Shown here one piece after another: positions 6,637-63,788 of a stretch of 64,000 nt of DNA. A program made the translations under genes and the position numbers. The notes beneath the pieces are model-generated. The model searched no databases. It was not told the origin of the DNA and saw only the letters and a program-made list of their open reading frames with translations. This stretch comes from a virus: the IMG/VR virus record IMGVR_UViG_3300020051_000004; one strand, given 5' to 3'. The stretch's first letter is position 1. Every line of letters starts with the position of its first letter.

Positions 6637-6637
6637 A

Positions 6638-6817
6638 TTAGTTTAATAAGCCGTGCTCTAATTCAATGATCATGTTTTCTATCTGCTCAAATTTGCCAGA
6701 ATTCAACAAATCAATTGGCCGCGCATCAAAAACTTTGTTGTGCTTATTTAGCCAGTTTTGAGCGGCGGCTGGGTCAAACAATTCGTCGAGGCGTGAGATT
6801 AGCTCTTGTTTAGACAT
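6638..6817 (-). CDS. Stand-alone MbcA/ParS/Xre antitoxin C-terminal (DUF2384-like) domain, 59 aa, not in ORF track
   Basis: MSKQELISRLDELFDPAAAQNWLNKHNKVFDARPIDLLNSGKFEQIENMIIELEHGLLN; fills the gap between neighbours exactly. Confidence 0.7.
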   Translation of the reverse strand: MSKQELISRLDELFDPAAAQNWLNKHNKVFDARPIDLLNSGKFEQIENMIIELEHGLLN

Positions 6818-6827
6818 TAGTAAATTT

Positions 6828-7133
6828 CTACTTTTTTTTGCAGAACTCGATTATTTTGTCCCACGCTTGTTGACTTGAAACATTTGGGTTGATGTCTGAC
6901 TCTAAATCTGGAACTGGCTCTGGTGGTTGAGAAGTTTCTTTTGGCGGCGAAAGTTTTTCTTCTGCTATTAAAGCGCTAAAACTCTCCACGCACGGAACGC
7001 ATATGTGAATATGTTGCCCGCGATTCCTAAAAGAATAGAAGGTGATGATTTTTTCAGTATTGGGCGCGATTTCTTTGTCGCATCCACGGCAAAAGCAGGT
7101 TCTTTGGGCGGGGCGGAATTGTATGTCTCTCAT
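6828..7133 (-). CDS. Zinc-finger hypothetical protein
   Basis: CRGC...HICVPC. Confidence 0.65.
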   Translation of the reverse strand: MRDIQFRPAQRTCFCRGCDKEIAPNTEKIITFYSFRNRGQHIHICVPCVESFSALIAEEKLSPPKETSQPPEPVPDLESDINPNVSSQQAWDKIIEFCKKK

Positions 7134-7339
7134 GGGTTTTTGTCTGAATACATAAGGTTATCGCAAAAATATTCAACTTCAAGATTTAGATTTCCAATGC
7201 AAGAAGATGCGTTTTCGCTCATTAGCTTTGCGTTTTGACAGCAAACTCGTAACTGTTTGCCGCTTTTAGGGTCGGTAAAAACGATTTTAAAATACGAGAG
7301 GTCTTTGTCCAATTGATTTGATAGTGTTTTTAGTGTCAT
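7130..7339 (-). CDS. Hypothetical protein
   Basis: Coupled ORF. Confidence 0.55.
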   Translation of the reverse strand: MTLKTLSNQLDKDLSYFKIVFTDPKSGKQLRVCCQNAKLMSENASSCIGNLNLEVEYFCDNLMYSDKNP

Positions 7340-7482
7340 ATTACTTTAGATTATCTCTTAGTCCTAACTTGTCAAGCACTTGTTTTTGTTCTCCGCGAGT
7401 TAATCCAAAAGATTTTAAGTATTTTCTTGCGGATTTCCAAGATTTAGGGATTTTGTCTTTGATTGAGGGGTGAGGGTTCATT

Positions 7483-7758
7483 CTACCAAAGGCTGTAGTC
7501 AACTGTCCTATCTTTAATGAATTCAAGTGTCTTGTTCTCTTTATCCTCTTTATCCTCTTCCCATTCTTCATAAAAGGCGGGATATGGTCCACAGGTTCCT
7601 ATTTTCGACCTTTCTAGTTCGCACGTTCTAATTCTTTGTTCGCCGTCAACTGGGCTTTGAATTATCCATGGGTTATAGCAGTTGAATTTTACTGTTGATC
7701 CATAACTTCCGTAGGTGTTTGCGCGGGAGTGTTTGCAGTTGATGCAGAAAAGTTTCAT
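7483..7758 (-). CDS. Cys-containing hypothetical protein
   Basis: CINCKH...C...C...CGP pattern. Confidence 0.6.
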   Translation of the reverse strand: MKLFCINCKHSRANTYGSYGSTVKFNCYNPWIIQSPVDGEQRIRTCELERSKIGTCGPYPAFYEEWEEDKEDKENKTLEFIKDRTVDYSLW

Positions 7759-7782
7759 CTTGTTTTTACGATTGTCTATACA

Positions 7783-8202
7783 TTAACTTGCAGTTTTTGC
7801 GATGTTTTGTGTTGTTCTATGTTTATCTTGCCACTTATAATAATTCTCAAACAAAGTCATCATTATTTCAAAATCCTGAAGGACACAGATGTTCACTCCA
7901 TTAGAACAATAATCCGTGAGTGACCTATGAGTATGAATCTCAAGAATATCTTTGCTGCATCTGCTTTGATCGTTGAAGCTCTTGAGAAGAGTGTCGAAAT
8001 GCTCTTGCAGTTGCCAATCCAATCTGACCATTTTGCCGTTTGCACAAAGGTTAGCCTTGCTAGTTTGCTTGAGTAGCATAGCTAGATAATCCAACTGAAC
8101 TTCTGGTCGGTATTTGTGTAGTTGCTTTTTGTCAAAATTTAGAATGCGACAATCGCCGCCTTTGCGATAGCGGATTTTAAATGGTTTTGATTTTTTGGTC
8201 AT
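7783..8202 (-). CDS. Hypothetical protein
   Basis: Packed minus-strand ORF. Confidence 0.6.
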   Translation of the reverse strand: MTKKSKPFKIRYRKGGDCRILNFDKKQLHKYRPEVQLDYLAMLLKQTSKANLCANGKMVRLDWQLQEHFDTLLKSFNDQSRCSKDILEIHTHRSLTDYCSNGVNICVLQDFEIMMTLFENYYKWQDKHRTTQNIAKTAS

Positions 8203-8205
8203 AAA

Positions 8206-8487
8206 TTACTCTCCATAGTATTGCCATAGAACAGCGTTGCATTCGCAATGGACTGCTCCAATGGTTAGTCCAGTATCATGGTTGTGATGCAAGTGAACGG
8301 GCCACTTAAAGAAGTCTTTCGGGAAAAGGGTCTTGTTTATGCGCCTCCCTTTTGCGAAATCTCCAGCAGGACCAGAAAGCGGCGCTTTACATTCGGCGCA
8401 TAGACCGTTTTGAATTTCAATGTATTTATTGCGAACGGCACGTCGTCCATTTGCGTCTAGGTGGTTGTAGTTAACTGGTAGGTCCAT
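8206..8487 (-). CDS. Endonuclease VII-like His-Me finger protein
   Basis: QNGLCAEC...HLHHNHDTG..IGAVHCECN. Confidence 0.7.
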   Translation of the reverse strand: MDLPVNYNHLDANGRRAVRNKYIEIQNGLCAECKAPLSGPAGDFAKGRRINKTLFPKDFFKWPVHLHHNHDTGLTIGAVHCECNAVLWQYYGE

Positions 8488-8489
8488 CG

Positions 8490-8792
8490 TTATCGAGAAA
8501 ATTTACTAGCCAATTCAAGATACTTATTGAAACGAGACTCTTCAACAGCATCCTCGCGAATCTCCATTTGATACCTTAATTCTCTAGCTGCAACTGGGTG
8601 GCATATCATATGGTTTCCGTATAGCAAAAAATCTTTTCGCGGGCGGGTTTTAAAATTGTTTGGCCGTTTCTGCCATTTCTTTTTAATTCTCTTTTTCTTG
8701 CTTCTGGGAAAGCGGAATTGGTAGGTTTCGGTCATTGATTGAGATTCAATGATTTGGAAACCGCCGAAGCTGTTGTAGTCTGTCTCGCTCAT
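8490..8792 (-). CDS. Hypothetical protein with basic patch
   Basis: Likely start ATG 8792 (TAATG overlap with upstream ORF); FRFPRSKKKRIKKKW. Confidence 0.6.
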   Translation of the reverse strand: MSETDYNSFGGFQIIESQSMTETYQFRFPRSKKKRIKKKWQKRPNNFKTRPRKDFLLYGNHMICHPVAARELRYQMEIREDAVEESRFNKYLELASKFSR

Positions 8793-8956
8793 TACATCCA
8801 CTCCTCTGCAAAAGTAAATTTTGTGCCGTCATTAGATAAAACACAGTAATCTATCGACTCAAACTTACCATCGCAGTTTCTAAAGTAAACTGGAAGGTCT
8901 TTTTCTTCGCTCTCGATCATTCGGTCGATGTATTTTTTTAGCTCTGATAGTTTCAT
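8792..8956 (-). CDS. Small hypothetical protein (54 aa, not in ORF track)
   Basis: MKLSELKKYIDRMI...AEEWM; TAATG coupling to next gene. Confidence 0.55.
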   Translation of the reverse strand: MKLSELKKYIDRMIESEEKDLPVYFRNCDGKFESIDYCVLSNDGTKFTFAEEWM

Positions 8957-8958
8957 AT

Positions 8959-9078
8959 TTAATTTTCTTTAATTTCGCGCTTGGAGTTTTGCCTCTCTTT
9001 CTTCCAGAATACTCTTTTCCATTCTCGAAGATGTTTCCACCATTGGGGTGGAGCGGTTAGTTTGCTTTTTGAGGCCAT
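8959..9078 (-). CDS. Small basic Trp-rich protein (39 aa, not in ORF track)
   Basis: MASKSKLTAPPQWWKHLREWKRVFWKKER; fills intergenic gap. Confidence 0.5.
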   Translation of the reverse strand: MASKSKLTAPPQWWKHLREWKRVFWKKERQNSKREIKEN

Positions 9079-9079
9079 A

Positions 9080-9631
9080 TTAGTCTAGATAGGAAAATTT
9101 ACAATCGCCCGCTTGTTTGTTTAAAAGAATTGCGCCGCAAGCAAATCCTCCAGTATTCCATCCTTTTGGCGTATCGGTCAACAATACCTCTCGAATATAA
9201 AAGCCAGCTTCTCTAATTATCCTTAATCTTTTTCGGAGAGCAAGAATATGAGAGACGGTTCCATAAGTTACGATATTATCCGCAATCTGCATCGACTTTT
9301 CCAAGAACGGAACGTATTTACTGAACGGGAAATTTGTAATTAGCCAATCAAACTTTTGGCCGCAAAAATCTTTTTCTAAAAAGTCGCGCCCTTCTGATAG
9401 TTCGCACCAATCTACATTAGTATCCTCTCCAAAAACTTTCATTGCATTATAAAACGCGCCGTTTCCTCTGCATGGCTCAATGAACGCATCATCCGAATAC
9501 ATTGTGTAGTTTCTATAAAAATACTGAACAATTTTCTGCGCCAAATCTGGTGGCGTCATTACAACGTCCTTGTCTGGGGAATTTTTAGGCGGCGCTAGGC
9601 GTCTCTTTTTTTGTTGTTTTGTTTCGCTCAT
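9080..9631 (-). CDS. Amino (probably N6-adenine) DNA methyltransferase
   Basis: VMTP, IEPCRGNGAF SAM-binding motif, ITNFPF (NPPF variant); likely start MSETK at 9631. Confidence 0.75.
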   Translation of the reverse strand: MSETKQQKKRRLAPPKNSPDKDVVMTPPDLAQKIVQYFYRNYTMYSDDAFIEPCRGNGAFYNAMKVFGEDTNVDWCELSEGRDFLEKDFCGQKFDWLITNFPFSKYVPFLEKSMQIADNIVTYGTVSHILALRKRLRIIREAGFYIREVLLTDTPKGWNTGGFACGAILLNKQAGDCKFSYLD

Positions 9632-13331: not shown

Positions 13332-14564
13332 ATGACCCCATACTTAATGAAAATTACGGAAATCGCCGAACCTAATAAATATACCAAATGGTATTGTTCT
13401 ATTATTCTTAAAGCGCTCGAAAGACCGCAGGATAGAAAGATTTTAAAGGCAACTATCGGATACGTTGAATCTCATCATATTCTGCCTAAATCCTTTCAGT
13501 TAGGAGGGGAAAAGGATAAGAATAACTTGGTATTTTTAACCGCCAAGGAACATTTTATCGTTCATCTTTGCGCAACGAAAATGTTTAAATCTATTTTTAA
13601 AAATAAAATGGTATTCGCCTTTCAGCAGTTGAGGAGTTCTAATCCATATCAAAAAAATAGATATATAAGTTCTAGATTTTACGAGAAGCTCAAGCCGAAT
13701 TTCAAATCTTTTGTTCGCCTTTACAAAGGTCTCGAAATAAAATATCTTTATGAGACCCAAATAAGTGAAATATCACATCTTGAGGAATCTGGTTGGTCAA
13801 GAAAAATGACTGATGAGCGCAGACAATTGACTTCTGAAAGAGCACCAAGAGGAATAATCCGCTCGGAAGAAACAAGAGCCAAACAAAGTCTAGCTCTCAA
13901 GGGTAAACCAAGACCAGCAACTAGAGGGCGAAAACTTTCTGAAGCGGCCAAAACCAAGGCGGCTGAGACAAGAAAAAAATGGATCGAAGAGAATCCAGAA
14001 TTGTATCAAGAGTATTTAAATCAAATTTCCAAGAGGTCAAGAGAAATGCACGCACAGGGGATAATTAATCTTTCTGGAGAGAACAACGGAATGTTTGGGA
14101 AAAATCACTCTACAGAATCAAAAGAGAGAATGAGCGAAACTAGAAAACAAAATTGGGAAATTTTTAAGGCCGATGATGAGAAATTTGCCCTCTATCTTGA
14201 AGAAAGGAAAAGAATAAATCGAAAAACGTGGGAGAGTCAGGAGCTTCGAGATAAATGCAAGATTATTAGATCAAAGGCTTATCTTCAATATGGAATTCAC
14301 CCTCAAGAATTTTATGAGCAAAAATTAAGACCGCTTTTGCAATTGGGCTTTTTACCGACCGCTATTGTGAAATATCAATTATTAGATATGCACGCTGGTA
14401 GTATTAAATTATGGATTACGAGATACGGAACAGGGGATGACATGAATCTCTTTATTAGAAATAAGAAAAATGGCGCTGGAGCAAACAAAGCCTATATTAA
14501 ATTCCAAGAAGACCAATATAAAAAACACTTCTTTTGCGGCCCTCCTCATCCAAATGACTTATAA
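13332..14564 (+). CDS. HNH homing endonuclease with NUMOD3-type repeats
   Basis: ESHHILPKS...NLVFLTAKEHFIVH; RSEETRAKQS and NGMFGKNHSTESKERMS repeats. Confidence 0.85.
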   Translation: MTPYLMKITEIAEPNKYTKWYCSIILKALERPQDRKILKATIGYVESHHILPKSFQLGGEKDKNNLVFLTAKEHFIVHLCATKMFKSIFKNKMVFAFQQLRSSNPYQKNRYISSRFYEKLKPNFKSFVRLYKGLEIKYLYETQISEISHLEESGWSRKMTDERRQLTSERAPRGIIRSEETRAKQSLALKGKPRPATRGRKLSEAAKTKAAETRKKWIEENPELYQEYLNQISKRSREMHAQGIINLSGENNGMFGKNHSTESKERMSETRKQNWEIFKADDEKFALYLEERKRINRKTWESQELRDKCKIIRSKAYLQYGIHPQEFYEQKLRPLLQLGFLPTAIVKYQLLDMHAGSIKLWITRYGTGDDMNLFIRNKKNGAGANKAYIKFQEDQYKKHFFCGPPHPNDL

Positions 14565-23220: not shown

Positions 23221-24525
23221 GAAAAGAAAACCTCTTCCTTTAGGTAGAGGATGAATTTTCGCATAAAGTTTCTAAATTTTATTAAAGTTTGTAAGATTAA
23301 GTGTAATACTATTTGAGATGACGCATCGCGCCTACAAGTTTCGCATATACCCTACGCTTTGTCAAGAGGAAATCTTGCGCAAGACAATTGGATCGTGCAG
23401 ATTTGTGTATAATTGGGCGCTCGCCCAAAAGCGTGAGGCTTGGGTAACGCAAAAGAAAAGTGTTTCGTATAACGCCACGTCAAAAGGCTTGACGGAGTTG
23501 AAGGATTCTCCAGAAAAGACGTGGCTTAACGAGGTGTCAAGCGTTTGCTTGCAGCAGAGTTTGCGTAATCTTGATTCTGCGTTTAACAACTTCTTCAAAA
23601 AGCGTGGCGGTTATCCATCGTTTAAGAGTCGCAAAAACGGTGGGTCTGCCCGATTTATGGATAACGCTTTTCGTGTTAGTGGCGACTCATTGTTTCTCGC
23701 AAAAATTAAAACGCCAATCAAAGTTGTTTGGTCGCGAACGCTTTCTGGCGAACCAACTTCTTGCACGGTTTCTCAAAATGCTTGTGGTCAATGGTTTGCA
23801 AGTTTCCTTTGCGAAGAGGAAATAGTCAAACTTCCGCCTTCCGACAAAAAGATTGGCATTGACGTTGGAATTGAGAGTTTTGCGACTCTCAGCGATGGCT
23901 GTTCGTTTTCACAGCCGAAAAAGATTCGTGGTTTGCGCAAAAAGTTGGCGCGTCTTCAGCGTTTACACGCACGCAAACAGAAGGGTTCTAAAAACCGTGA
24001 ACGTGCTCGCAAAAAGGTTGCCCGCATTCATCAGCACATTGCAGATGTGCGCAGAGATTTTCTCCACAAACTAAGCACTAAACTCGTTCGCGAAAACCAA
24101 GCGATTGCAGTTGAAGACTTAGCTGTTCGCAACATGGTTAAGAACCGCAAACTTTCTCGCTGTATAAGCGAGCAGGGTTGGCGTGACTTCCGAGCTATGT
24201 TAGAGTACAAGTGCGAATGGAGTGGCCGCGAACTACTAATCGTAGATCGTTGGTTTCCAAGTAGCAAAACGTGCTCATGCTGTGGAGCAAAGGCTAGCTT
24301 TGGCTTAGAAACAAGGCAATGGACGTGTGATAGCTGCGGCGCTAATCACTTGAGAGACGTTAATGCCGCGAAAAACATTTTGGCCGCTGGACAAGCGGTG
24401 TCAGCGTGCGGAGTGGACGGAAGACCAACGAAGAACTACGTTCTTCGGGGCAGGACACAACGAAGCACGAAACCCAAGGCGCGAGCCGAGGAATCCTCGC
24501 CTCTTTAGGACGGGGAGGATGTCAA
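23221..24525 (+). mobile_element. IS200/IS605-family TnpB-only (IS1341-like) element
   Basis: Left-end hairpin CCTCTTCCT-TT-AGGTAGAGG; right end GAATCCTCGCCTCTTTAGGACGGGGAGGATGTCAA; no target duplication; removal restores a TAG stop in the flanking gene. Confidence 0.85.
23318..24508 (+). CDS. tnpB: RNA-guided endonuclease TnpB
   Basis: AYKFRIYP, RFVYN, RuvC GIDVG / VEDL / RDVNAA intact, Zn ribbon CSCC...CDSC. Confidence 0.95.
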   Translation: MTHRAYKFRIYPTLCQEEILRKTIGSCRFVYNWALAQKREAWVTQKKSVSYNATSKGLTELKDSPEKTWLNEVSSVCLQQSLRNLDSAFNNFFKKRGGYPSFKSRKNGGSARFMDNAFRVSGDSLFLAKIKTPIKVVWSRTLSGEPTSCTVSQNACGQWFASFLCEEEIVKLPPSDKKIGIDVGIESFATLSDGCSFSQPKKIRGLRKKLARLQRLHARKQKGSKNRERARKKVARIHQHIADVRRDFLHKLSTKLVRENQAIAVEDLAVRNMVKNRKLSRCISEQGWRDFRAMLEYKCEWSGRELLIVDRWFPSSKTCSCCGAKASFGLETRQWTCDSCGANHLRDVNAAKNILAAGQAVSACGVDGRPTKNYVLRGRTQRSTKPKARAEESSPL

Positions 24526-30412: not shown

Positions 30413-30445
30413 CAGATTTAGTATTTTTTGCGTATAGTATGTGCC

Positions 30446-32527
30446 ATGACAAAAACTCCCATTAATGTACTATCACTCTTTGACGGAATCTCTTGCGGTC
30501 AACTTGCTCTTCAACGAGCAGGTATTCCAGTAAATCAATACTTTGCTAGCGAAATTGACAAACATGCTATCAAAGTCACCCAACACAACTTCCCCAATAC
30601 TATTCAATTGGGCAGTGTGGTTGATGTAAAAGCGGAATATTTACCAAAGATTGACCTAATCTGTGCAGGTTCACCTTGTTTTGTGGCGGGGACGCCCGTT
30701 TTGACCAATAAGGGATACAAAAGCATTGAAGATGTTAAAGTTAGTGATGAGGTGCTATCTCACAAGGGAAATTGGAAAAACGTTCTAAAAATTGGCGGCA
30801 AATTAAATTGCCCCATCATCTCCTTGTGCGCCAAAGGTTCGCTTCCCATACAGACAACCAAGGAGCATCCGTTTTTTACCAGGGCGAAATCCGTGGTATG
30901 GGAAAATAATGTGCGGCGATACAAAATCTCTTTCGCCGCTCCAGAATGGACAGAAGCAGCGAATATAAAAAAGGGAGATTTGATCGGTTTCCCTCGAATG
31001 AAGGATTCGCACAACGAACTATACGAACTGTCCGATGACGAACTATTTGTACTGGGTAGATATATTGCTGACGGTCACACACGAAAGGATTATAGAGTTT
31101 CCGAAGGTCGCCCAAACGACAGAAATTGGCAGCTTATTCTTTCCATTGGGAAAGGCAAGGAATTTGCCACGTCTTGCAATCATTCCTTTTATCCTCATAC
31201 CAAAAGTGTTAGTCGCATGGTTTTTTCTAGTAAAAAATTAGTTAAATTAGCCGAGAATTATTGTGGTCGCGGTGCTGAAAACAAACATATCGGGCCATCT
31301 TTTCTCGCTCTTCCCAAGGATAAATTGATAATTGTCTTAGATGGATTGATGAGCGGAGATGGTTCGGCACGGAAAAACGAATTTCGCTTAACAACAGTAA
31401 GTTACAAACTACTCCTTTCTATGCAGATGGCCGTTGTAAAATGTTATGGCACATCTGGATGTTTAATGAAAACGATCCGCCCTAAGACAACTATTATTGA
31501 AGGTAGAACTGTAAATCAAAAGGATACGTATTCTATTAGTTTTAGGAAGGCCGATTCCTTTGATTTGTGTGATGACAACTACGTTTGGTCGTATGTCAAG
31601 AGCGTGGCGGAAGATTTTTCCAAGCAGGACGTTTTTAATCTTGAAATTCAGGATGATAATTCATACACCGTTCAAAATATCTCTGTTCATAATTGTCAGG
31701 GATTTAGTCTGGCAGGGAAACAATTAAATTTTGAAGACCCGCGTTCAAAACTATTTTTTGAGTTTGTTCGCCTATTAAAAGAATGTGCGCCAAAATATTT
31801 TCTTCTTGAGAATGTCAAGATGAAGAAAGAGTATGAGAATGTGATTACCGAAACATTAGGAGTCGCGCCCATCAAAATTAATTCGGCCCTTGTGTCCGCC
31901 CAGAATAGAGAAAGGTTATATTGGACAAATATTCCAGATGTTAAACAACCAGAAGACAAAGGAATCTTGCTAAAAGACATTCTTGAATTTTCAGTTGGAG
32001 AAAATTCGGTTAAGAACTCTCCCGACCAGATTTCAACAGCTGGTAACAGAGGGAAAGGGAATAGGGTTTATGTTTATCCTCGCGGCACTAATGATGGAGG
32101 TCTGAAACATTACAATGGTAAATCTCCATGTATCACTACATCAAATTGGGAGCATAATATTTTCGCTGCCCAAAGAATTGAATCTAATCTTGAAAAACTT
32201 CTTGAAACTAGCAAATATAAAGACTCCTTCCAATGGAGATATGATAAGAAGGGGCGTGTTTTGGTTATGCGTCCAGATGGCTTGAAAATTCAAAGAATCG
32301 GAAGGGTCGCAAACGAAAATACAAAGACGGAAATCATCACCTGTCTAACTCAGCCCCACCTAGATAATGGGTTACTCATTCGCAAAATTACCCCTGTTGA
32401 GGCGGAGCGCCTTCAAACGGTTCCAGATAACTACACATCTTGTATCTCCGACAACAAACGCTATCATGCTTTGGGCAATGGTTGGACAGTTGATGTTATT
32501 GCTCATATTTTGAGTGGAATTCAGTAG
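30446..32527 (+). CDS. C5-cytosine DNA methyltransferase, intein-containing
   Basis: LSLFDGISCG, GSP|CQGFS, LLENV, QNRERLYW, ERLQT, LGNGW; start ATG 30446 after TTGACA-18 nt-TATAGT. Confidence 0.92.
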   Translation: MTKTPINVLSLFDGISCGQLALQRAGIPVNQYFASEIDKHAIKVTQHNFPNTIQLGSVVDVKAEYLPKIDLICAGSPCFVAGTPVLTNKGYKSIEDVKVSDEVLSHKGNWKNVLKIGGKLNCPIISLCAKGSLPIQTTKEHPFFTRAKSVVWENNVRRYKISFAAPEWTEAANIKKGDLIGFPRMKDSHNELYELSDDELFVLGRYIADGHTRKDYRVSEGRPNDRNWQLILSIGKGKEFATSCNHSFYPHTKSVSRMVFSSKKLVKLAENYCGRGAENKHIGPSFLALPKDKLIIVLDGLMSGDGSARKNEFRLTTVSYKLLLSMQMAVVKCYGTSGCLMKTIRPKTTIIEGRTVNQKDTYSISFRKADSFDLCDDNYVWSYVKSVAEDFSKQDVFNLEIQDDNSYTVQNISVHNCQGFSLAGKQLNFEDPRSKLFFEFVRLLKECAPKYFLLENVKMKKEYENVITETLGVAPIKINSALVSAQNRERLYWTNIPDVKQPEDKGILLKDILEFSVGENSVKNSPDQISTAGNRGKGNRVYVYPRGTNDGGLKHYNGKSPCITTSNWEHNIFAAQRIESNLEKLLETSKYKDSFQWRYDKKGRVLVMRPDGLKIQRIGRVANENTKTEIITCLTQPHLDNGLLIRKITPVEAERLQTVPDNYTSCISDNKRYHALGNGWTVDVIAHILSGIQ
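30677..31693 (+). other. Intein (339 aa) with LAGLIDADG endonuclease
   Basis: CFVAGT start, TKEHPF block B, LGRYIADG and LDGLMSGDG, ends VFNLEI...SVHN, +1 Cys. Confidence 0.92.
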
Positions 32528-54817: not shown

Positions 54818-55075
54818 TTAATAAGATAGTTCTTTTATGACTCGCCTGTACAGCTTAGCTTTTCCCTTGCAGTCATCTGAAATTGTAACGCAGTTTCCCC
54901 ATGCGTCGTATTTTTCTGAAAACGAAACGGTATTGACTGTCAATCTAGCGTATTCCTCCAGTTTCTCAGCTTCTTCAGTCAAGAGTCGCGCCAAAAATTT
55001 TGGCTTTTCAATGATCGTTTTAATATGTTCTCTTGCGTTCTCTGGGATTTTCATTAATGGGCTATTTTTATTCAC
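54818..55075 (-). CDS. Hypothetical protein
   Basis: Coupled to Clp gene. Confidence 0.55.
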   Translation of the reverse strand: MNKNSPLMKIPENAREHIKTIIEKPKFLARLLTEEAEKLEEYARLTVNTVSFSEKYDAWGNCVTISDDCKGKAKLYRRVIKELSY

Positions 55076-57396
55076 GACAGTTCGATTTTATTATTTTCAG
55101 CCTTTACATTAATGGTTTTTGGCCTCTTGTCAAGAATAAACTTTGCCAGCGGCACATCTAATTTTCGCCGCACTGTTGTTTGAATTTCTCGCGAGTGGGA
55201 GTTTTGGGCTTTAATTTCTTTTAGGAGCATCGGGGCCACACTAGAGTCAATAACCACTGACACGCCAGAGTCTCTTAGTTTTTCAACTGTTTGGTTAATG
55301 AACTTGTTTAGGATATTAGTCATCATTTCGTCACTCATATCCTTAAACACAACAATCTCATCTACTCGGGCTCGAAATTCGGGCGCGAAATCTTTTTGCG
55401 CCGCTTTTTCGTGATGATCTGTTGAAGGCTGAACGTTAAACCCAAGACTTTTTGGCGGCTCGCTTCCACTGTTTGTCGTGAGGATAACGATTGTGTTGGT
55501 GAAATCAACCCTGAACCCTTGACCATCAGTGAGATAACCGTCATCCATGATTTGGAGTAGGAGGTTGTGAATGCTTCTGTCTGCTTTTTCAATTTCATCG
55601 AATAGGACGACGCACGATGGATTATGCTTTACAAACTCAGTTAATCGCCCGCCATTTTCATATCCCACGTATCCAGCCGTTGTTCCAATGAGTGAAGAGC
55701 TAGAAAAACGCTCTGAGAACTCGCTCATGTCTAGTTTTAGGATAGCTTTTTCGTCTCCAAAATAATGAGCGGCCAAATCTTTTGAGAGTTGTGTTTTGCC
55801 GAGGCCAGTTCCTCCAACAAACATAAACTTTCCGAGTGGTTTGTTCTTATCTCTGAGTCCCACTTTTGAACATAGCAATACATCGCATACTTTGTCAATC
55901 GCGTGATCTTGACCAAAGATTGCGACCTTTAGTTTATCCGCCAACCCATCAATTCCAGACGTTTGCAGTTGTTTTAGTTGGTTTTCAGTGATTTTGTGTT
56001 TTTCGGCGAAAGTTGCTAAGGCTTTTTGAGGAGTAATCAGAGGAACGTTTTGTTCGATTTGTTCCATCCATTTGTTGAGTTTTTTGGCCCACTTTTCTAG
56101 CTTGCGATTAAATTTCTCAAACTCAGGAGAGTTTTCCTTCATGTTTGGGCTGACTTTATCTATAATGTTTTGCCACTCTTCGTGTAGTTTCGGCGGATGA
56201 GTAAAATGCTCATTTTTTGAACGCGCCCCAAGAAAATCTAGAGTGTCAAATGCCTTTTCTGGAAAACGGCGATATGGAACGAACTTTTCGCAAAGGTCTA
56301 AAACCATGTCGATTGTTTCGGGCGGGAACTCTGCAAAGTGACATTCTTCTAGTTCGTGAATGGAATTGATTAGAATTTGCCGCGTTTCTTCTTTTGTTGG
56401 CTCTTTGACTCTAATGATCTCAAAAAGGTTTGCCATTGACTGGTCTTTTTCAATGCTCTTTTTATAATCAGCCTGAGTAACCGTCGCAAGGCAAGAAACA
56501 TTTGGGCGGGCCAAAATACTTTTCAAAAAGTTGGACACATCACTTGGACCTTCTTTAAATCCGCTACCAGACACTACTTGGAAATCTGGGATAACCAATA
56601 CAGCATTACCATGGCTCGCTAATTCTTCTGACAAGTTTCGGAATCGACTTTCGATAGAGCCCATCATTGCTGTGCCAGCTACAACAGCCGTAACATCTAG
56701 TTCAAAAAATGTTTTGGCCCGCAATACTTCTGAGCTTTTGCCGCTGTTAATTTTTTCAATAACGCCGCGAATAATACTCTTACGGCCAACGCCCGCATCA
56801 CCAATCAAAACAGCGTTGCCCTTTTTATGTCGGCAAAGAATATCTAGGATATTGGAAATTTCTTCGGCGCGGCCATAAATTTTCTGAGGCTCAGTTCCGT
56901 ATTCAAATGATAAGTTTTTGCAGAATCTTTCGATTGTTGGAAAAGTTTCTTTGCCGCTTTCTTCGTCGTCACTTTCTGAGTTTCCTTTGAGGGTAAGCAT
57001 GTCAGATGTTTTCTCTAAGATACTTTCGATAGGATAATCGTAAATCCCGAAATAACTCCTAATAGTTGGCGAAGAATTAAGAATTTCGTGAAAAACATGC
57101 TCTGTATCAAAGAACCCAAAACCAAGAGTTTCGGCGGAATCTTGGGCTTCTTTTAGGACTGAATTATATTCTTCTTCGCAATCTTCAAAAATCTTTGGAA
57201 ACACTTCTGGCAACTTGTCGAGTAAACTGGCGCTAACAGCATCAGCGTCAATTCCAAATGTGGCCAATAAAAATTTAAACTTACTCTCCTTTAAGAGTTG
57301 CGCGAACAAATCGACAACATTGTTTGGGCGGCTATTCTTTTTTGCTGATTTTTCGGATTGTTCAAGATGGTAAAGAAGGCTGGGGGTTTTTTGCAT
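55072..57396 (-). CDS. ClpA/ClpC-like AAA+ ATPase
   Basis: Clp-N (DTEHV), NBD1 scaffold, NBD2 GGTGLGKT, LDMSEF, GYVGY, LFDEIEKA, SLGF loop. Confidence 0.9.
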   Translation of the reverse strand: MQKTPSLLYHLEQSEKSAKKNSRPNNVVDLFAQLLKESKFKFLLATFGIDADAVSASLLDKLPEVFPKIFEDCEEEYNSVLKEAQDSAETLGFGFFDTEHVFHEILNSSPTIRSYFGIYDYPIESILEKTSDMLTLKGNSESDDEESGKETFPTIERFCKNLSFEYGTEPQKIYGRAEEISNILDILCRHKKGNAVLIGDAGVGRKSIIRGVIEKINSGKSSEVLRAKTFFELDVTAVVAGTAMMGSIESRFRNLSEELASHGNAVLVIPDFQVVSGSGFKEGPSDVSNFLKSILARPNVSCLATVTQADYKKSIEKDQSMANLFEIIRVKEPTKEETRQILINSIHELEECHFAEFPPETIDMVLDLCEKFVPYRRFPEKAFDTLDFLGARSKNEHFTHPPKLHEEWQNIIDKVSPNMKENSPEFEKFNRKLEKWAKKLNKWMEQIEQNVPLITPQKALATFAEKHKITENQLKQLQTSGIDGLADKLKVAIFGQDHAIDKVCDVLLCSKVGLRDKNKPLGKFMFVGGTGLGKTQLSKDLAAHYFGDEKAILKLDMSEFSERFSSSSLIGTTAGYVGYENGGRLTEFVKHNPSCVVLFDEIEKADRSIHNLLLQIMDDGYLTDGQGFRVDFTNTIVILTTNSGSEPPKSLGFNVQPSTDHHEKAAQKDFAPEFRARVDEIVVFKDMSDEMMTNILNKFINQTVEKLRDSGVSVVIDSSVAPMLLKEIKAQNSHSREIQTTVRRKLDVPLAKFILDKRPKTINVKAENNKIELS

Positions 57397-57405
57397 ATGA
57401 GAAGG

Positions 57406-57669
57406 TTAATCTGGGATAGTGATTTCGTCAATTACTTTATGGTAGATAGATTTAATAGACTTTTCGTGCCGAGACTTTTTTTCATGAGCCTCCTTGATGG
57501 TGCTAATGAGTTGTTCTTTTGAGTCAAAACGTTTCGGCGTACCGTTTATATCGTAAGGTTTTCTTAACTCTTCTAGTGATGGCGTAAGATAAATACATCC
57601 AAACCTTTGTTTTGCATAAAACCATTTGCCAGTGTCGTTGCCTGTTTCGTAGATTCTGTATGTTGTCAT
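57406..57669 (-). CDS. Hypothetical protein
   Basis: Minus-strand ORF. Confidence 0.6.
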   Translation of the reverse strand: MTTYRIYETGNDTGKWFYAKQRFGCIYLTPSLEELRKPYDINGTPKRFDSKEQLISTIKEAHEKKSRHEKSIKSIYHKVIDEITIPD

Positions 57670-57677
57670 ATTTTTAA

Positions 57678-58859
57678 TTACTTCACTTGTGAAAGGCGGG
57701 TATAAATAGTTTCTTCGACAATTGAGAACTTGTCAATCATCAAAAGATCGCCAAACTTCTTCCCTACCACCGTTACCACAGAATCTTCTTCTGGCACTGG
57801 TAGTTTTTCTTCAAGGTGGCGGGACCATTTGTTGTCTTTGGCATTATCACCAAACATTCCAGATAGTTTGCCACTTTCATCAGAGATAGAAAGCATCATG
57901 TATTTATTGCCTTTTTTGGAGGTTGTCTTTTTTACTTCAGTCACTACTCCAACAATACGCACAGTTTCATTATCGTCAAGAGAATTAAACTCTAGAATGG
58001 GGGTAAAAGAGTGTTTTGACTCTTCAAACACTTCTCGTAAGGTATAACTGTATGAATACCCAAGCATTTCGCGCTCGAAATACCAGTTGCAGAATTTTTG
58101 GTGGCGAATGTTCTGGTCATAAATGGCTTTGTATTTACCATGCTCATCTCTCAACTTTTGAATACGCTTTTCAGTGAACGCGCTTTTGTTTTTTGCATTA
58201 ATGATTTTTCCTTCCGCGCCATCTTTTAGAGCGGCGAAAACGTCGTAATTATGATGCTCACCAAGCTCAAGAACAGCGAATTTTTCGTTCTCTGTGAGCT
58301 TATTAAACATCTGAGCTTCTAAGACCGTTTTGCAGCGATTTTCCCCAAAGGAATCCAAACATCCAGCCTGAATAAGAGTACAGAGAACGCCAATATTAAG
58401 CCCGCAGTCTTTGGCGGTTTGAAATACTTCGTACTTGTTTTTAAATTCGTGGCCGCGAAATGTTAGGAGGTTTTGGATGCTCTTTTCTGAGATTCCTTTG
58501 ATTGCATCCATGCCAAATCTTAAGTTGTTCCCCTCAATAGAGAAGCTTTCCTTTGATTTTGATAGGTCGGGCGGGAGAAGTTTAATATTAAACAGACCTA
58601 GCTCTTGGGTGATTTTAAACACTTCGGCGAGAGAATCTGGCTCATATTTAGACATTATGAGCAGTGATAGGAAAAACTCTTTAGGGTAATTGAATTTAAG
58701 ATACGTGCAAATTTCGGCAGTTGAGGCATAGGCGACGGCATGAGAATTACTGACGCAAATATCATTGCAGAAGAAATTATGATCTGGGTCGTCAATTTCT
58801 AAATCAATGGTGTTTTTAATTCCGATAGGTGTGATTTTTTTTATTTTGAATGCCTTCAT
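57678..58859 (-). CDS. dnaE: DNA polymerase III alpha C-terminal part preceded by C-intein
   Basis: 38-aa C-intein then SHAVAY, YLK.NYP.EF, LLPPD, LRFG..AIKGI, EREMLG, OB fold SKKGNKY. Confidence 0.93.
   Translation of the reverse strand: MKAFKIKKITPIGIKNTIDLEIDDPDHNFFCNDICVSNSHAVAYASTAEICTYLKFNYPKEFFLSLLIMSKYEPDSLAEVFKITQELGLFNIKLLPPDLSKSKESFSIEGNNLRFGMDAIKGISEKSIQNLLTFRGHEFKNKYEVFQTAKDCGLNIGVLCTLIQAGCLDSFGENRCKTVLEAQMFNKLTENEKFAVLELGEHHNYDVFAALKDGAEGKIINAKNKSAFTEKRIQKLRDEHGKYKAIYDQNIRHQKFCNWYFEREMLGYSYSYTLREVFEESKHSFTPILEFNSLDDNETVRIVGVVTEVKKTTSKKGNKYMMLSISDESGKLSGMFGDNAKDNKWSRHLEEKLPVPEEDSVVTVVGKKFGDLLMIDKFSIVEETIYTRLSQVK
58746..58859 (-). other. Split intein, C-fragment (38 aa)
   Basis: MKAFKIKKITPIGIKNTIDLEIDDPDHNFFCNDICVSN, +1 Ser. 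Confidence 0.92.
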
Positions 58860-59813
58860 TTGATATTATACTGCGTGCAAATTACCTTATACGATTTTCT
58901 AAAGAATGAATCTAAATCCTTTTCTTCTTTTAAAGAAGCTGCCAAAGCTATTGGTTTCTCCCCATCAAGGATAAAAAATCTATTTGAACGTAAATTTAGT
59001 CATATTGATAGTCGATTTGTTATTGACGGTAGAGATGAAATCTTAACCGTATTAAAGGATTTGTCAACTGGAAAAATTTACAAAACACTTAATTCTAAAA
59101 CATTGGGCATTTCTGCTGGGTTCAAGCCAACAAGAAAAGATATGCTTGCGTTTTGCACTTTAAAAAATAATCGTGCTTATATGGCGACAATAGGAGGAAT
59201 AAAATTTAAAAATCTTAATACCAATCCAGTTAAAGTTCAATCTTATTTAGATAAATACAACACAGAGAGTCGAAGGGCAAATCAAAAGGAAAACCGCGCA
59301 AAAAATATTGAAAGAGATAAAAAGAAAATGCAGGAATGGAAAGATCGGAATCGCGCTCATATGAGGAAGTATAATAATACCTATACTCTTTCCCGACGAG
59401 AGAAAGATATTTCTTTCAGAGTGAGGATGAACCTTCGTGCTCGATTAAGGATGGCTTTGATTGGAGAAACGAAGAGCGGTTCCATACTTGATTTAATGGG
59501 ATGTTCGATGGATTTTTTAAGAAATCATATCGAAAGTCAATTTATAGATGGTATGTCTTGGAATAACTACGCTAAAGTTTGGACCATTGATCATATTATC
59601 CCCTGTTCGTTTTTCGATTTGTCTATTGAAGACCATCAGAGAATGTGTTGTTATTATAAAAATTTGAGGCCGCTTTGTAAAATTGAAAATAGCAAAAAAT
59701 TCAATCATTTACCAGACAACTACCGAAGCTTTATCTCGGATAACCTCATTGAAGCATCGCTTTATCCCGTCACTGCATACAAACTTATGCTCGCTGGACA
59801 CGCGAATCTTTGA
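58860..59813 (+). CDS. Free-standing HNH homing endonuclease, antisense between dnaE halves
   Basis: MGCS...HIESQFIDGMSWNNY..WTIDHIIP...NLRPL...ENSKK; start may be GTG 58875. Confidence 0.85.
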   Translation: MILYCVQITLYDFLKNESKSFSSFKEAAKAIGFSPSRIKNLFERKFSHIDSRFVIDGRDEILTVLKDLSTGKIYKTLNSKTLGISAGFKPTRKDMLAFCTLKNNRAYMATIGGIKFKNLNTNPVKVQSYLDKYNTESRRANQKENRAKNIERDKKKMQEWKDRNRAHMRKYNNTYTLSRREKDISFRVRMNLRARLRMALIGETKSGSILDLMGCSMDFLRNHIESQFIDGMSWNNYAKVWTIDHIIPCSFFDLSIEDHQRMCCYYKNLRPLCKIENSKKFNHLPDNYRSFISDNLIEASLYPVTAYKLMLAGHANL

Positions 59814-61484
59814 TCCATTTTCCAGTTCGACCTCAAAGATTTCTACCTTATTTTGATAAGTGTTTTTTACGGTAGTTTTTTTGCGTCTTTGAGCTTCAAT
59901 GTCCCATGAATATACGGAATCTCCAGAGAGTATGTCTTTAATCATTTTAGGGCCATCCTTCGTATTTACGATTTCGTCTTCAAAAATGCAGCGATTAAAT
60001 GAATAATCGGCAGAAGCAATCATGGCGTCCCAGAAAAATTTTGCCACCTCCTCGGGAATACCTTTTGCTTTTGCATTGTCAAAAATGACGGGTTTCCAGA
60101 CCTCCATTTCTTCTTTCTTTTTTTTGCCCGTTGCACGGCGCACGCTTTCTGCGTCCAGCAAAGACAGTCCGAATACTTCATGGCAGACCCTCATGATAGT
60201 TTCTTGGAAGAGAATTGTTCCTTTCGTCTCATCTAGGATTTTATCAAGTGATGGCCATCTTTTTTCTGAGTCCTTTAAGTGGTTTTTGACCTTAACGTAC
60301 TCATCCACAAAACTTAAACTGCCAGGACGACTTAGTGACAGGACATCGCTAAGCTCGTCTAGGTTTTTCGGCTGAACTTTCTGACAAACTTTGAAGCCAA
60401 CATCCGTCTCAATTTGAAAGATTCCTTGCGGAGCCAATAAATTTTGCAAGTGAATATATGTTTTCTCTTTTGGGATTTCAAAATCCTTAAAGTTAATTCC
60501 AACCATCTTAGCGGTTCTCTCAATTACCGATAATGTCCGAAGGCCAAGAATATCAAACTTTACCATTAATGAGCCAACATCACCCATTTCAAATCCAGAG
60601 ATTATCTCTCCATCTTTTGTTGATTGGAGCGGCATCATATCATCAATTTTTTGAGCGCAAATCGCTAATCCCGAAGGATGAACTCCCGTATTCTTTACCA
60701 AGCCTTCAAGTTTGCACGCTACGCGATAGGATTTTGGGTATTGCTTTACATATTTTTCAAACGCAGGGCTTTCCTCTATAGCCTTTTCAAAATCAAGTAC
60801 TTTGCCGAATTTTTTAGGAATTGTGGCGCTGACATGATTAGCTTCGTCTTCCGTAGTTCCATCAACAATTTTTAAACACTCGCGCATACACGCCTTGCCA
60901 CTCAATGTATTTAGAGTCAGAATTTTACTGGTTTGACCAGCAAATTCATCATTGATAAACTTTATCACTTTTTCGCGACTTTGAAATTCAATGTCGTGGT
61001 CGCAATCTGGAAGAAGCGAGCCGTCTAAATAGGTTTTGCCGTCGCTGCCAGCGATTTTTTTTGCGCGGTTTTTGGATACAAACCTTTCAAAATAGAGTTT
61101 ATTTGGAATTGGATCAACATGCGTAACCTTAAGCATGTACAGTACAGCGGAACCGACACAGCTTCCGCGCCCCTTGCCCGTCACAATCCCCTGCTCATCG
61201 CAGAAATTTAGAATTTTCCAATTTAAAAGAATGTATGGGCAAAAACCAAGTTCCTCAAATGTGGAAAGCTCATATTTGATGCGGTCATAATATTCTTGAG
61301 CATTGTCAAGTTTATCAATGCCCTTTTCCTTTACTCCTTCCCAGCATAGTTTCCGAAGGAAGTTAAAGTCGGAAATATTTGGCGAAACACCAAGTTTTTC
61401 GTAAAATCTTGGCTCAATTGATACGGAGGGCAGAATAACGCCCTCTGCCAATGGCTTGTTTAGTGGTTGGAAGTCTTCAAACAT
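59709..61484 (-). CDS. dnaE: DNA polymerase III alpha catalytic part followed by N-intein
   Basis: GRGSCVGS, FERF, PDCDHD, GVHPSG, KFDILGL, GIFQIE, RPG, ADYSFNR; likely start MFEDF at 61484. Confidence 0.93.
   Translation of the reverse strand: MFEDFQPLNKPLAEGVILPSVSIEPRFYEKLGVSPNISDFNFLRKLCWEGVKEKGIDKLDNAQEYYDRIKYELSTFEELGFCPYILLNWKILNFCDEQGIVTGKGRGSCVGSAVLYMLKVTHVDPIPNKLYFERFVSKNRAKKIAGSDGKTYLDGSLLPDCDHDIEFQSREKVIKFINDEFAGQTSKILTLNTLSGKACMRECLKIVDGTTEDEANHVSATIPKKFGKVLDFEKAIEESPAFEKYVKQYPKSYRVACKLEGLVKNTGVHPSGLAICAQKIDDMMPLQSTKDGEIISGFEMGDVGSLMVKFDILGLRTLSVIERTAKMVGINFKDFEIPKEKTYIHLQNLLAPQGIFQIETDVGFKVCQKVQPKNLDELSDVLSLSRPGSLSFVDEYVKVKNHLKDSEKRWPSLDKILDETKGTILFQETIMRVCHEVFGLSLLDAESVRRATGKKKKEEMEVWKPVIFDNAKAKGIPEEVAKFFWDAMIASADYSFNRCIFEDEIVNTKDGPKMIKDILSGDSVYSWDIEAQRRKKTTVKNTYQNKVEIFEVELENGSKIRVSSEHKFVCSDGIKRCFNEVIRDKASVVVW
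59712..59990 (-). other. Split intein, N-fragment (93 aa)
   Basis: CIFEDEIVNTKDG...IKDI..GDSVYS...VELENGSKIRVSSEHKF, then stop. Confidence 0.92.
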
Positions 61485-61713
61485 ATTTGTTATCTTTTTC
61501 TGAAATCCAAACAGCAAGGCAGTAACGCTGCTTTTCGGATAAAAATTTGTGGGTTTGGTAGTGGTTTCTAATTGATTTTAATTTTTCGCTTCTAGCTCCA
61601 GATGAAGCGACGAAAAGTTTTTCATCACTCATGTCAAGGTAATCTTCTGGACGAGAGAAGTCATCATTAAAAAGACCACTCCAAAAATTAGGAATCCAAT
61701 CTTCTGCTGCCAT
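61477..61713 (-). CDS. Hypothetical protein
   Basis: Coupled ORF; LSEKQ motif. Confidence 0.6.
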   Translation of the reverse strand: MAAEDWIPNFWSGLFNDDFSRPEDYLDMSDEKLFVASSGARSEKLKSIRNHYQTHKFLSEKQRYCLAVWISEKDNKYV

Positions 61714-61718
61714 ATAAA

Positions 61719-62150
61719 TTATTCTTTAAAATTATTTTTGTTTGGCCGCTCTATTTCTTTGGTTCCATCTGGACTTCTGCTGAATAGCTTGTCTAGCTTT
61801 GGCCCCATTCTACTTGACCAGCGTATTTTGCCATAACCAATGTCATCTTTCAAGCTGATTTTTGCTGTCTTGTAGTCGAATACTAGAGAATACCACATGA
61901 GTCTTTCTGTAACATATTCAAGAAATGAAGTCTTTTCTCCATGAGTGATGATTACATTTTTCTTGTAAATTTCGGCGAATTGTTCAAATGTATCTTCGCC
62001 CTCAATTAAAAGATGATGGTTTCGCCACTTTTTATAAGTTGACGGTTTAGAACTTAAGATTTCTTCAATTTGCGGCCTAAAATATTCTGAGATTTCGTGA
62101 TACTTTTCAGAGTACTCTGGCGGGGCTGGGTAGAGGCATTTAGGATGCAT
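61719..62150 (-). CDS. Hypothetical protein
   Basis: Minus-strand ORF. Confidence 0.6.
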   Translation of the reverse strand: MHPKCLYPAPPEYSEKYHEISEYFRPQIEEILSSKPSTYKKWRNHHLLIEGEDTFEQFAEIYKKNVIITHGEKTSFLEYVTERLMWYSLVFDYKTAKISLKDDIGYGKIRWSSRMGPKLDKLFSRSPDGTKEIERPNKNNFKE

Positions 62151-62152
62151 TT

Positions 62153-62785
62153 TTAAATATTTTCTCCGTCGTCGTATCGACTTGGGTTAGTTTTGGGGTA
62201 CGATTTTACTACAGGGTAGGATAGTTTGTCAAGCATTATTTTCTTGCTTCTTTTGTCGCCGCAGAGAAAAAAGTATCGGTGTTTAGGCTCAGGTTTCAGG
62301 GTTTGGATTTTGTTTTGTTTTGCCCACTGTTTTAAATTTGTAACGCCGAATCTGTCTCTCACCGTCATGGGATGAAGTCGCTCGCCATTTACCAAGTAAG
62401 AGTGGTCGTGAGATTTTGTAGCGCCTGTGTAGAGCCAATTTGTAGCTTGATACACGAACCCGCAGTGATTCCATTCGCTATCAGCGTAAGATACAACGGC
62501 GCACGGTTTTTCGAGCATTTTAAGAGAGTTGCCGATTAAAAAGCTTGCGGCGTTCTTTTCTTTTGTTTGAATGACTAAGCGGCTCAACTCAAATAGGCGA
62601 AAATCTCTATCTTTGAATGCGTGTTTTTGAATTGGTGGCGAAGGTTGCCCATAAACAACGACACCTTCGAGTTTGCTGTTAATCTCTAAACCAAAACCCG
62701 CCCAAAAAATGGACGGGCGGCGCGAATAATGTTTTTTAGAAACCCAAAGGTCGGCGGTTTGTTTGGTGACTGGTACTACCTTCAT
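62153..62785 (-). CDS. Mom-like DNA modification protein (GNAT fold)
   Basis: KHYS, ELSRL, VVSYAD...H.G.VYQATNWLYTG, KHRY. Confidence 0.75.
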   Translation of the reverse strand: MKVVPVTKQTADLWVSKKHYSRRPSIFWAGFGLEINSKLEGVVVYGQPSPPIQKHAFKDRDFRLFELSRLVIQTKEKNAASFLIGNSLKMLEKPCAVVSYADSEWNHCGFVYQATNWLYTGATKSHDHSYLVNGERLHPMTVRDRFGVTNLKQWAKQNKIQTLKPEPKHRYFFLCGDKRSKKIMLDKLSYPVVKSYPKTNPSRYDDGENI

Positions 62786-62794
62786 ATTTTTACT

Positions 62795-63148
62795 CTAGGC
62801 CATCCACAACCCATCGTCAACAGTTAAAACTAAATTCAAACCTAGAAACTCCTTCCGCCGATACGAATCTCCGCCCAAATACAAGGCAGTAGTTTCAGTT
62901 GTTAAGCGGCTGTCTAAAGATATAATATCTTGAATCTTTTTACTAGCTCTTGGGCCAGCAAATAGAGTTGTTGGTTGATAAAAGTTTTTAAGGAGAGAGC
63001 TTTTTGCGTTAATGGTTAAGTCGATGATTGATTTGTCTTCGTATCCTTCTTCCCAATATCCAAATGGAAAAGACAAGTATTTATAGCGGCGAAAATAAAT
63101 TTGCGGCCAAGGTTGGTTAGGTTCTAGGATAGTCATGTCAAATCTCAA
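62795..63148 (-). CDS. Hypothetical protein
   Basis: Minus-strand ORF. Confidence 0.55.
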   Translation of the reverse strand: MRFDMTILEPNQPWPQIYFRRYKYLSFPFGYWEEGYEDKSIIDLTINAKSSLLKNFYQPTTLFAGPRASKKIQDIISLDSRLTTETTALYLGGDSYRRKEFLGLNLVLTVDDGLWMA

Positions 63149-63788
63149 TCTCGTAAATCATTTTTTGAAACACATCTCTTGTGTACCGACAGTCATTTAA
63201 CGAATCATGATGGAGGTTTCTATCATATGGAAAGCCGTAATGCTTAACCATGGATTCCAGCGTAGCTTTTAAACCCCTCTCCCTATGATGCATAAACCTC
63301 ATTTGCCAACAAAGCAGGTCATTATGGTCAACGGTTTTATTTCCCTTTTGAATAGCAACAGACAATGCTCTAGTGTCGATCACTCGATTAATGAATGACC
63401 AGTCTGTAGGCAATCCTATATTGCGTCGCCAGTTGTTGAGGATGTAGTTGTCGAAGTTTAAAATATTTTGCCCAACAATCAATACTGACGGATCATAAAA
63501 ATACTGCGCGAATTCATCCCAAACTTCTTTAGGGTCGCGGGCATTTTGTTCATAGTTATAACGGTCAAAGCGGGTTATTTTGGCCGCTTCTTCGGAGATA
63601 TTTAAGTCAGGCCACCAGATCTCGCGCTGTTTTTCTAGCAGAGTGTTCTTGCCTTGACAAAGGATAAATCCGCTTTGCCATGGTCTATTTTTGTGGATAG
63701 AAGAATCGCCTAATGAGAGATTTTCGGTCTCGCAGTCCCAGAAGAGAATCTTCTGATCAAGTTTGAATCTCAGTAAATTATTGTTCAT
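63138..63788 (-). CDS. DEDDh 3'-5' exonuclease (Pol III epsilon-like)
   Basis: WDCETE, VGQNILNFD, IDT, HDSLND. Confidence 0.85.
   Translation of the reverse strand: MNNNLLRFKLDQKILFWDCETENLSLGDSSIHKNRPWQSGFILCQGKNTLLEKQREIWWPDLNISEEAAKITRFDRYNYEQNARDPKEVWDEFAQYFYDPSVLIVGQNILNFDNYILNNWRRNIGLPTDWSFINRVIDTRALSVAIQKGNKTVDHNDLLCWQMRFMHHRERGLKATLESMVKHYGFPYDRNLHHDSLNDCRYTRDVFQKMIYEIEI

Follow-up and report, generated by a model that had tools for sequence, protein, structure and literature searches.

Three fractured dnaE loci (DnaE-1, DnaE-2 and DnaE-3), in which the gene for the alpha subunit of DNA polymerase III (Pol III alpha) holds a split intein at a non-cyanobacterial site, were described from GOS metagenomes by Dassa et al. 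in 2009 (PMC2677866). Their N-terminal intein halves (IntN) measure ~88-105 amino acids (aa) and their C-terminal halves (IntC) 33-54 aa, and all three genes of a locus, including one for a GIY-YIG or Vsr-like endonuclease, lie on one strand with a spacer of 27-51 nucleotides (nt). Here, we describe a fractured dnaE in the virus record IMGVR_UViG_3300020051_000004 of IMG/VR, a stretch of 64,000 nt that is referred to below, at its full length, as the window. Between positions 57678 and 61484, two minus-strand open reading frames (ORFs) encode the halves of Pol III alpha, the first ending in an IntN and the second opening with an IntC, and between them lies an antisense gene for a putative homing endonuclease. 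Judged from its sequence, this is a genuine and probably functional trans-splicing split intein in a fractured phage dnaE.

Compared by description, the window locus is like those of Dassa et al. in its phage-type DnaE, its split intein at a point other than the cyanobacterial one, and the free-standing endonuclease gene between the halves, and it is likewise similar to them in the sizes of IntN and IntC and in the complementary charges of their strands. Unlike those loci, its endonuclease gene is HNH-like and antisense, overlaps the IntN coding sequence by 105 nt and nearly abuts the start of IntC. The parts of the locus are as follows.

59709..61517, minus strand: DnaE-N ORF; likely start ATG at 61484, giving 59709..61484
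59991..61484, minus strand: DnaE-N extein; palm/NTPase and most of the fingers of Pol III alpha, ending ADYSFNR
59712..59990, minus strand: N-intein, 93 aa (CIFEDE...SSEHKF...VVVW); stop codon at 59709..59711
58746..58859, minus strand: C-intein, 38 aa; own ATG (58859), ending ICVSN
57678..58745, minus strand: DnaE-C extein, 355 aa; opens SHAVAY and holds the end of the fingers, the HhH domain and the OB fold
57678..58859, minus strand: DnaE-C ORF (C-intein plus extein)
58875..59813, plus strand: putative homing-endonuclease gene, 312 aa; GTG at 58875 (alternative TTG at 58860), antisense to dnaE
59709..59813, both strands: dual-coding overlap, 105 nt; the last 35 endonuclease codons against the last 34 N-intein codons and the stop

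An initial annotation, made from the letters of this DNA, had proposed two ORFs carrying a 93-aa N-intein and a 38-aa C-intein about 850 bp apart, all of which is borne out by the ORFs as read and by a gap of 849 nt between them. They encode separate polypeptides, as there is a stop codon after IntN and IntC has its own ATG, and the size of relatives of the DnaE-N half (587-597 aa) agrees with a start at ATG 61484. DnaE-N carries the domains PF07733 (5e-56) and PF17657 (2e-31), and its extein is without a PHP domain; DnaE-C carries PF14579 (HHH_6, 3.6e-19) and a weak match to the OB fold. On the PHROG 405 profile, DnaE-N covers positions 334-793 and DnaE-C positions 793-1089, and on the NCBIfam profile NF004226 the two cover positions 284-751 and 751-1023, so that on each profile the exteins meet at one position. 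Such abutment is far beyond chance. As had been proposed, splicing would restore a conserved motif. The insertion point is FNR/SH (the slash marks the junction; the site is also given below as FNK/SH) and lies four residues downstream of the cyanobacterial site, Y/CFNK. A blastn search of GenBank phages with positions 57000..62000 gave no match.

The residues expected of a class 1 intein are in place in both halves. The intein_Nterm model TIGR01445 matched residues 510-580 of the DnaE-N ORF with 30.2 bits against a cut-off of 24.5, and PF14890 matched the N-intein at 2.4e-7 (27-31 bits, under the gathering score of 35.8). The C-intein, which at 38 aa is too short, gave no match to a hidden Markov model (HMM). 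Cys1 is C510 of the 602-aa ORF, directly after FNR, and block B reads S574-S-E-H577; Cys1, S574 and H577 are invariant across 16 N-halves. Block F of IntC includes D19 and H27-N28-F29, and the half ends in S37-N38, followed by S39 and H40 of the extein, all of which are invariant in four C-halves. Fourteen contiguous relatives likewise end SN/SH. The distance of the junction from the cyanobacterial site, the +1 Ser, the S-x-x-H of block B and the penultimate Ser had been read correctly from the outset. The lack of a penultimate His, put forward at the same time as a distinguishing mark, is not one, because the Ssp DnaE chain is also without His there (it reads IAAA before CFN).

The alignment to intein HMMs and known split pairs that the initial annotation had called for thus yields a pass with TIGR01445, about 30% identity to cyanobacterial DnaE inteins and a weak match to gp41-1. 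The best matches of the N-intein in the PDB are cyanobacterial DnaE inteins (7qil, 4.5e-7; Ssp, 2.5e-5; Npu, 2e-3). The match to gp41-1 was far weaker (E 1.3 for IntN and 0.26 for IntC), and IntC matched PDB chains weakly, all of them DnaB and gp41-1 inteins. Like the Ssp and Npu inteins, which occupy site a of Pol III alpha, the window intein lies in the same host protein and the same fingers motif, is of class 1 with Cys1, and has no penultimate His. Unlike them, it sits at FNK/SH with a +1 Ser rather than at Y/CFNK with a +1 Cys, its halves are neighbors, separated by 849 nt that hold an endonuclease gene, where theirs lie at distant loci, and it is found in a phage, in a DnaE without a PHP domain. 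The gp41-1, NrdJ-1 and IMPDH-1 inteins resemble it as compact phage split inteins with a +1 Ser in fractured genes, but they reside in other host genes and their sequence similarity is weak. Those three inteins end HN, while the family of the window intein ends SN. The split intein belongs to a known class, and with its relatives forms a large and hitherto undescribed sequence family.

Modeling of the two halves together supports their pairing. The complex of IntN (residues 500-602) with IntC (residues 1-60) scored 0.74, and no control exceeded 0.01; a score of 0.74 is attained by 58 of 80 solved complexes and by just 2 of 110 mismatched pairs, and since solved split-intein complexes exist in the PDB, such a pass speaks for likeness and not for binding. 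Runs had at least 89% of their contacts in common, with a predicted local distance difference test score (pLDDT) of the partner of at least 67. In the model, an acidic strand of IntN (residues 558-566) contacts residues 4-14 of IntC, whose start is rich in lysine (net charge +4 over the first 19 residues). Complementary charges on the pairing strands of split inteins were reported by Dassa et al. (PMC2677866).

Tight pairing in a model is not chemistry, and the same picture would be given by halves that assemble without splicing and use the intein pieces as a module for noncovalent dimerization. There is a precedent for fragmented phage enzymes of this sort: the halves of Aeh1 NrdA, whose gene is split by the HNH gene mobE, assemble functionally without splicing (PMC2677866, PMC3045599). 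The window locus is like Aeh1 nrdA/mobE in having a free-standing gene of HNH type between the halves of a gene for an essential phage enzyme, and unlike it in having an intein and in the orientation of the endonuclease gene, which is antisense here and on the same strand in mobE. We consider assembly without splicing improbable, given that the residues of the splicing chemistry (Cys1, S/TxxH, the block F Asp and His, the terminal Asn and the +1 Ser) are invariant across divergent relatives, and that the break falls inside FNKSH, a conserved motif of the fingers that could hardly accommodate 131 additional residues.

Misassembly, by which a contiguous intein or an uninterrupted gene would have been misjoined, had been named beforehand as the finding that would overturn a split intein, and it was looked for in other assemblies. 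No point in its favor was found. Of the sampled words of the stretch, 97-100% recur in each of eight salt-marsh runs that were assembled separately (the source sample may be among them), and one salt-marsh contig of 53.8 kb is identical across the whole locus. In addition, the halves are split at the same residue in three divergent contigs (L001, L002 and L004). As these contigs are independent, misassembly is excluded for practical purposes, and we give it a vanishingly small probability.

The site itself proved to be in frequent use. When 1.8 billion cluster representatives were searched with the N-intein (93 aa), 297 proteins matched at E ≤ 1e-3, and among the best 148 placed clusters of these matches, 69 have a related intein after Y-x-F-x-x in DnaE. 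Most of the 69 are split (53 clusters, in which the protein ends no more than 20 residues past the N-intein); 13 are contiguous mini-inteins, two are fused to an endonuclease and then stop, and one has another form. Their first residue is Cys in 64 and Ser in five. The contiguous relatives with a readable C-terminal junction are 131-150 aa long, except for one of 214 aa, and all read SN/SH there. In two metagenome-assembled genomes of Anaerolineae (L006 and L007, ~6300..7580), this FNK/SH site is occupied by a contiguous intein of ~350 aa that ends VHN/SH, and the site was empty in most of the other Chloroflexota loci fetched. FNK/SH is thus a widely used intein landing point, in agreement with the intein hot spot that Novikova et al. 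described in 2016 in the fingers domain of Pol III alpha (PMC4760082). One part of the initial annotation holds, namely a natural split intein in a phage dnaE; the arrangement is not unusual, given the three loci of Dassa et al. and the 53 clusters split at this same site, and the orthogonality of the pair, its kinetics and a dependence of phage replication on splicing would be conjectural.

A special kinship with the cyanobacterial DnaE inteins, which top the list of PDB matches, was considered and rejected: none of them occurs in the best 150 database clusters. There is, therefore, no evidence that the intein 'slid' here from the cyanobacterial site. The nearest relatives of the N-intein outside DnaE (for example, P0031, P0104 and P0162) start CIFKDEPV and follow the motif PxxDHNQ in long proteins, which, from the motif, we take to be RNA-polymerase-like.

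The reason why dnaE is broken lies in the gene between its halves. Although the initial annotation was right to call a fractured gene, it left out the antisense homing-endonuclease gene that fills the gap, which is the key to the break. The 312-aa product, identical to a database protein (P0019) and found on contigs of up to 164 kb, has NUMOD-like DNA-binding modules at its N terminus, a long helical linker and an HNH-like motif at its C terminus. Ten homologs were detectable, and none of the ten has a Pfam domain. The HNH-signature pattern DH..P ... NL.PL ... N..K is invariant in their alignment (D239, H240, P243, N263, L264, P266, L267 and N272). PHROGs gave a match to endonuclease VII (phrog_1035, 3e-6), the N terminus matched NUMOD1 weakly (E 0.019), HNH_4 was matched in one family member (E 0.012), and an Atlas cluster in which 52% of the members have PF01844 scored 0.88 with the endonuclease. 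In a structural model of the protein (mean pLDDT 74.5), residues 1-52 superimposed on residues 121-170 of I-HmuI (Z 6.1; root mean square deviation 1.8 over 50 residues). The nuclease part (pLDDT roughly 50-88) found no match when the full model and its C-terminal 150 residues were searched with Foldseek and VIA, an hhalign comparison of the C-terminal domain with the HNH_3 region of L004 gave a probability of 0.05%, and an NCBIfam search had no match. By its motif, we name this protein a putative NUMOD/HNH-like homing endonuclease.

Endonucleases in an antisense or shifted frame have been described before. Gosselin, Arsenault and Gogarten reported noncanonical actinophage inteins with antisense or out-of-frame endonucleases (bioRxiv 10.1101/2025.01.02.630785). 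The window locus is like these in that the endonuclease lies within the intein region, in the antisense or another frame, and derives from free-standing phage endonucleases, the EndoVII-like type included. The actinophage inteins are contiguous and carry antisense LAGLIDADG or Vsr-like genes or an out-of-frame EndoVII-like gene, whereas the window intein is a true split intein, whose two ORFs start and stop independently of each other.

Close DnaE relatives were compared in four IMG/VR virus contigs (L001 to L004). L001 has the same layout as the window, that is, an N-half, an antisense 314-aa homolog of the endonuclease and a C-half, and its overlap of N-intein and endonuclease is also 105 nt (7663..7767). 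No DNA of the locus is better conserved than this overlap, at 80-88% between the window and L001 compared with ~45-75% elsewhere, as would fit with both reading frames being under selection. In L002, the split falls at the same residue, and a 330-aa gene with NUMOD3 and REase/Vsr-like parts lies on the same strand as dnaE, resembling Dassa's DnaE-2. In L004, the N-intein is fused in frame to NUMOD4 and HNH_3 and followed by a stop, and a separate, overlapping C-intein ORF comes after it (5971..8319 and 8304..9500); P0004, P0011 and P0015 show the same fusion to the N-intein, with the stop at a conserved position. This NUMOD4/HNH_3-fused split form looks like a transitional stage on the way from a free-standing endonuclease gene to a bifunctional intein.

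The closest genome overall, L003, in which, for example, the 216-aa exonuclease ORF starts as it does in the window, has an empty site and an uninterrupted DnaE of 850 aa. The spliced DnaE of the window is 82-86% identical to this protein beyond residue ~550 and 24-58% identical over residues 100-550; L001 and L002, which have the intein, are most similar to it immediately ahead of the junction, at 88-90% identity. Such a pattern is expected if the cassette came together with flanking extein.

A more recent exchange is visible in a wastewater run (X10). The N-extein of P0009 from this run is 100% identical to that of the window over 498 aa, while its IntN is just 29% identical. Its 7.9-kb contig differs from positions 59992..61487 at 8 nt, and the match ends exactly at the start codon and at the junction of extein and intein. 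On a second contig of the run, the C-extein matches at 92%, and the match reaches as far as the final two codons of the intein. An identical N-extein with a different intein indicates that the histories of intein and extein are uncoupled and that the exchange was recent. The P0009 contig also has a different upstream neighbor from the window, so that the N-extein fragment acts as an exchange unit of its own, and just downstream of dnaE-C, ahead of the next ORF, the X10 relative is longer by 690 letters (window 57669..57710), an insertion/deletion difference. The linkage of P0009, P0001 and P0003 to endonuclease homologs is drawn solely from the equal sizes of the longest contigs of endonuclease homologs and matching N-halves (24,897 and 95,469 nt).

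The PHP domain that DnaE-N lacks has, in the relatives, a small ORF to itself, which lies several genes upstream of dnaE-N (L001, 3634..4395, PF02811 at 1e-7; L002, 3703..4566; L004, 3796..4536), and the gene for a DnaQ-like exonuclease (63138..63788 in the window) lies between the two. With a detached PHP ORF and a split dnaE, the polymerase is encoded in at least three pieces. Directly upstream of dnaE-N in L001 lie an N-terminal fragment of a C5 methylase (5351..5617) and, after it, an ORF that matches LAGLIDADG weakly (5568..6008), and this region (5351..6008) may be another broken or invaded gene.

This detachment of the PHP domain, and the crowding of the window with mobile elements (a second intein, another homing endonuclease and a transposase), could be taken for signs of a decaying locus, in which insertion of the endonuclease gene killed the intein and dnaE and the phage uses another polymerase. 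Both dnaE halves are intact ORFs with conserved polymerase domains, however; the same layout is kept at 52-77% protein identity in other contigs, the split form is retained across the many database clusters counted above, and the dual-coding overlap is the best conserved stretch of the locus. We regard decay as very unlikely, more so than assembly without splicing.

Taken together, we think it very probable that the locus is a phage fractured gene in which a PHP-less Pol III alpha gene is interrupted at FNK/SH by a class 1 intein, itself split at the usual point of endonuclease insertion by a free-standing homing-endonuclease gene. We infer the steps of its operation from the anatomy of the locus and from knowledge of the families involved. 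DnaE-N/IntN and IntC/DnaE-C would be made as two proteins, both probably encoded by a single minus-strand transcript that crosses the endonuclease gene in antisense. A HINT fold would form as the acidic strand of IntN pairs with the first, lysine-rich strand of IntC, and trans-splicing by Cys1, S-x-x-H, the terminal Asn and the +1 Ser would give an 864-aa polymerase with the motif Y-S-F-N-R-S-H-A restored. Encoded on the other strand, the NUMOD/HNH-like enzyme would cut intein-free dnaE alleles of coinfecting relatives, and on repair these alleles would acquire the intein together with the endonuclease gene and flanking extein.

Several points weigh against this interpretation. Splicing, endonuclease activity and the target of the enzyme are all inferred, and the nuclease domain of the 312-aa protein falls under every Pfam threshold. 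The RNA evidence consists of unstranded contigs of one metatranscriptome library, which possibly holds DNA: in this salt-marsh library (X15), identical short contigs lie over parts of all three genes, giving neither strand nor transcript ends, and the gaps in their cover carry no meaning. No Shine-Dalgarno sequence is visible ahead of the DnaE-C start. Finally, DnaE-C and the endonuclease start head to head, with ~15 nt between their start codons, and each must therefore have its promoter within coding sequence. Promoter and terminator scans gave consensus matches only (the best on the minus strand, at 59681..59653, agreed at 11 of 12 positions), and these are not used as evidence.

Other genes of the window include those for a large terminase, a Mom-family protein, the DnaQ-like exonuclease and a ClpB-like ATPase, and there are several mobile elements. 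No tRNA genes were found within it. The genes around the locus and the mobile elements are as follows.

13332..14564, plus strand: NUMOD3 homing endonuclease (phrog_655)
23318..24508, plus strand: transposase (phrog_506, 9e-136)
30428..32527, plus strand: C5 cytosine DNA methylase (PF00145, residues 423-698) with a second, contiguous intein of ~340 aa (Hint_2, Hom_end_hint and Intein_splicing over residues ~83-422)
55072..57396, minus strand: ClpB-like double-AAA ATPase, adjoining dnaE-C
62153..62785, minus strand: Mom-family DNA-modification protein (PF25680, 1.7e-33)

The general picture drawn by Dassa et al. in 2009 is unchanged by this locus. What is new with respect to that study and to Gosselin et al. 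(2025) is an antisense, overlapping HNH-like gene in a truly split intein; also new are the occurrence of no fewer than three unrelated endonuclease cassettes at a single residue and their recent exchange between near-identical exteins. A further-reaching idea, which we offer tentatively and hold to be rather doubtful, is that FNK/SH of phage dnaE is a contested landing pad, where three unrelated cassettes (antisense NUMOD/HNH-like, same-strand Vsr-like and in-frame NUMOD4/HNH_3) replace each other in near-identical exteins. The 105-nt overlap would then lock the antisense gene and the N-intein together, preventing the loss of either, and could couple endonuclease expression to dnaE transcription via antisense RNA, and the HNH_3-fused split form would be the 'missing link' in Dassa's model of the passage from free-standing to bifunctional.

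Naturally split inteins serve as tools for protein ligation, and a large uncharacterized family that has FNK/SHA junctions and Ser at +1 could enlarge the set by pairs free of cross-reaction with Npu or gp41-1. For biology, several stages of the intein and endonuclease life cycle are found in this locus and its relatives at one residue of one gene, from the empty site through the contiguous intein to the split form with three endonuclease arrangements and a recent cassette exchange. Such a set of stages is rare, and it makes the competition between intein alleles and the coconversion of exteins directly testable.

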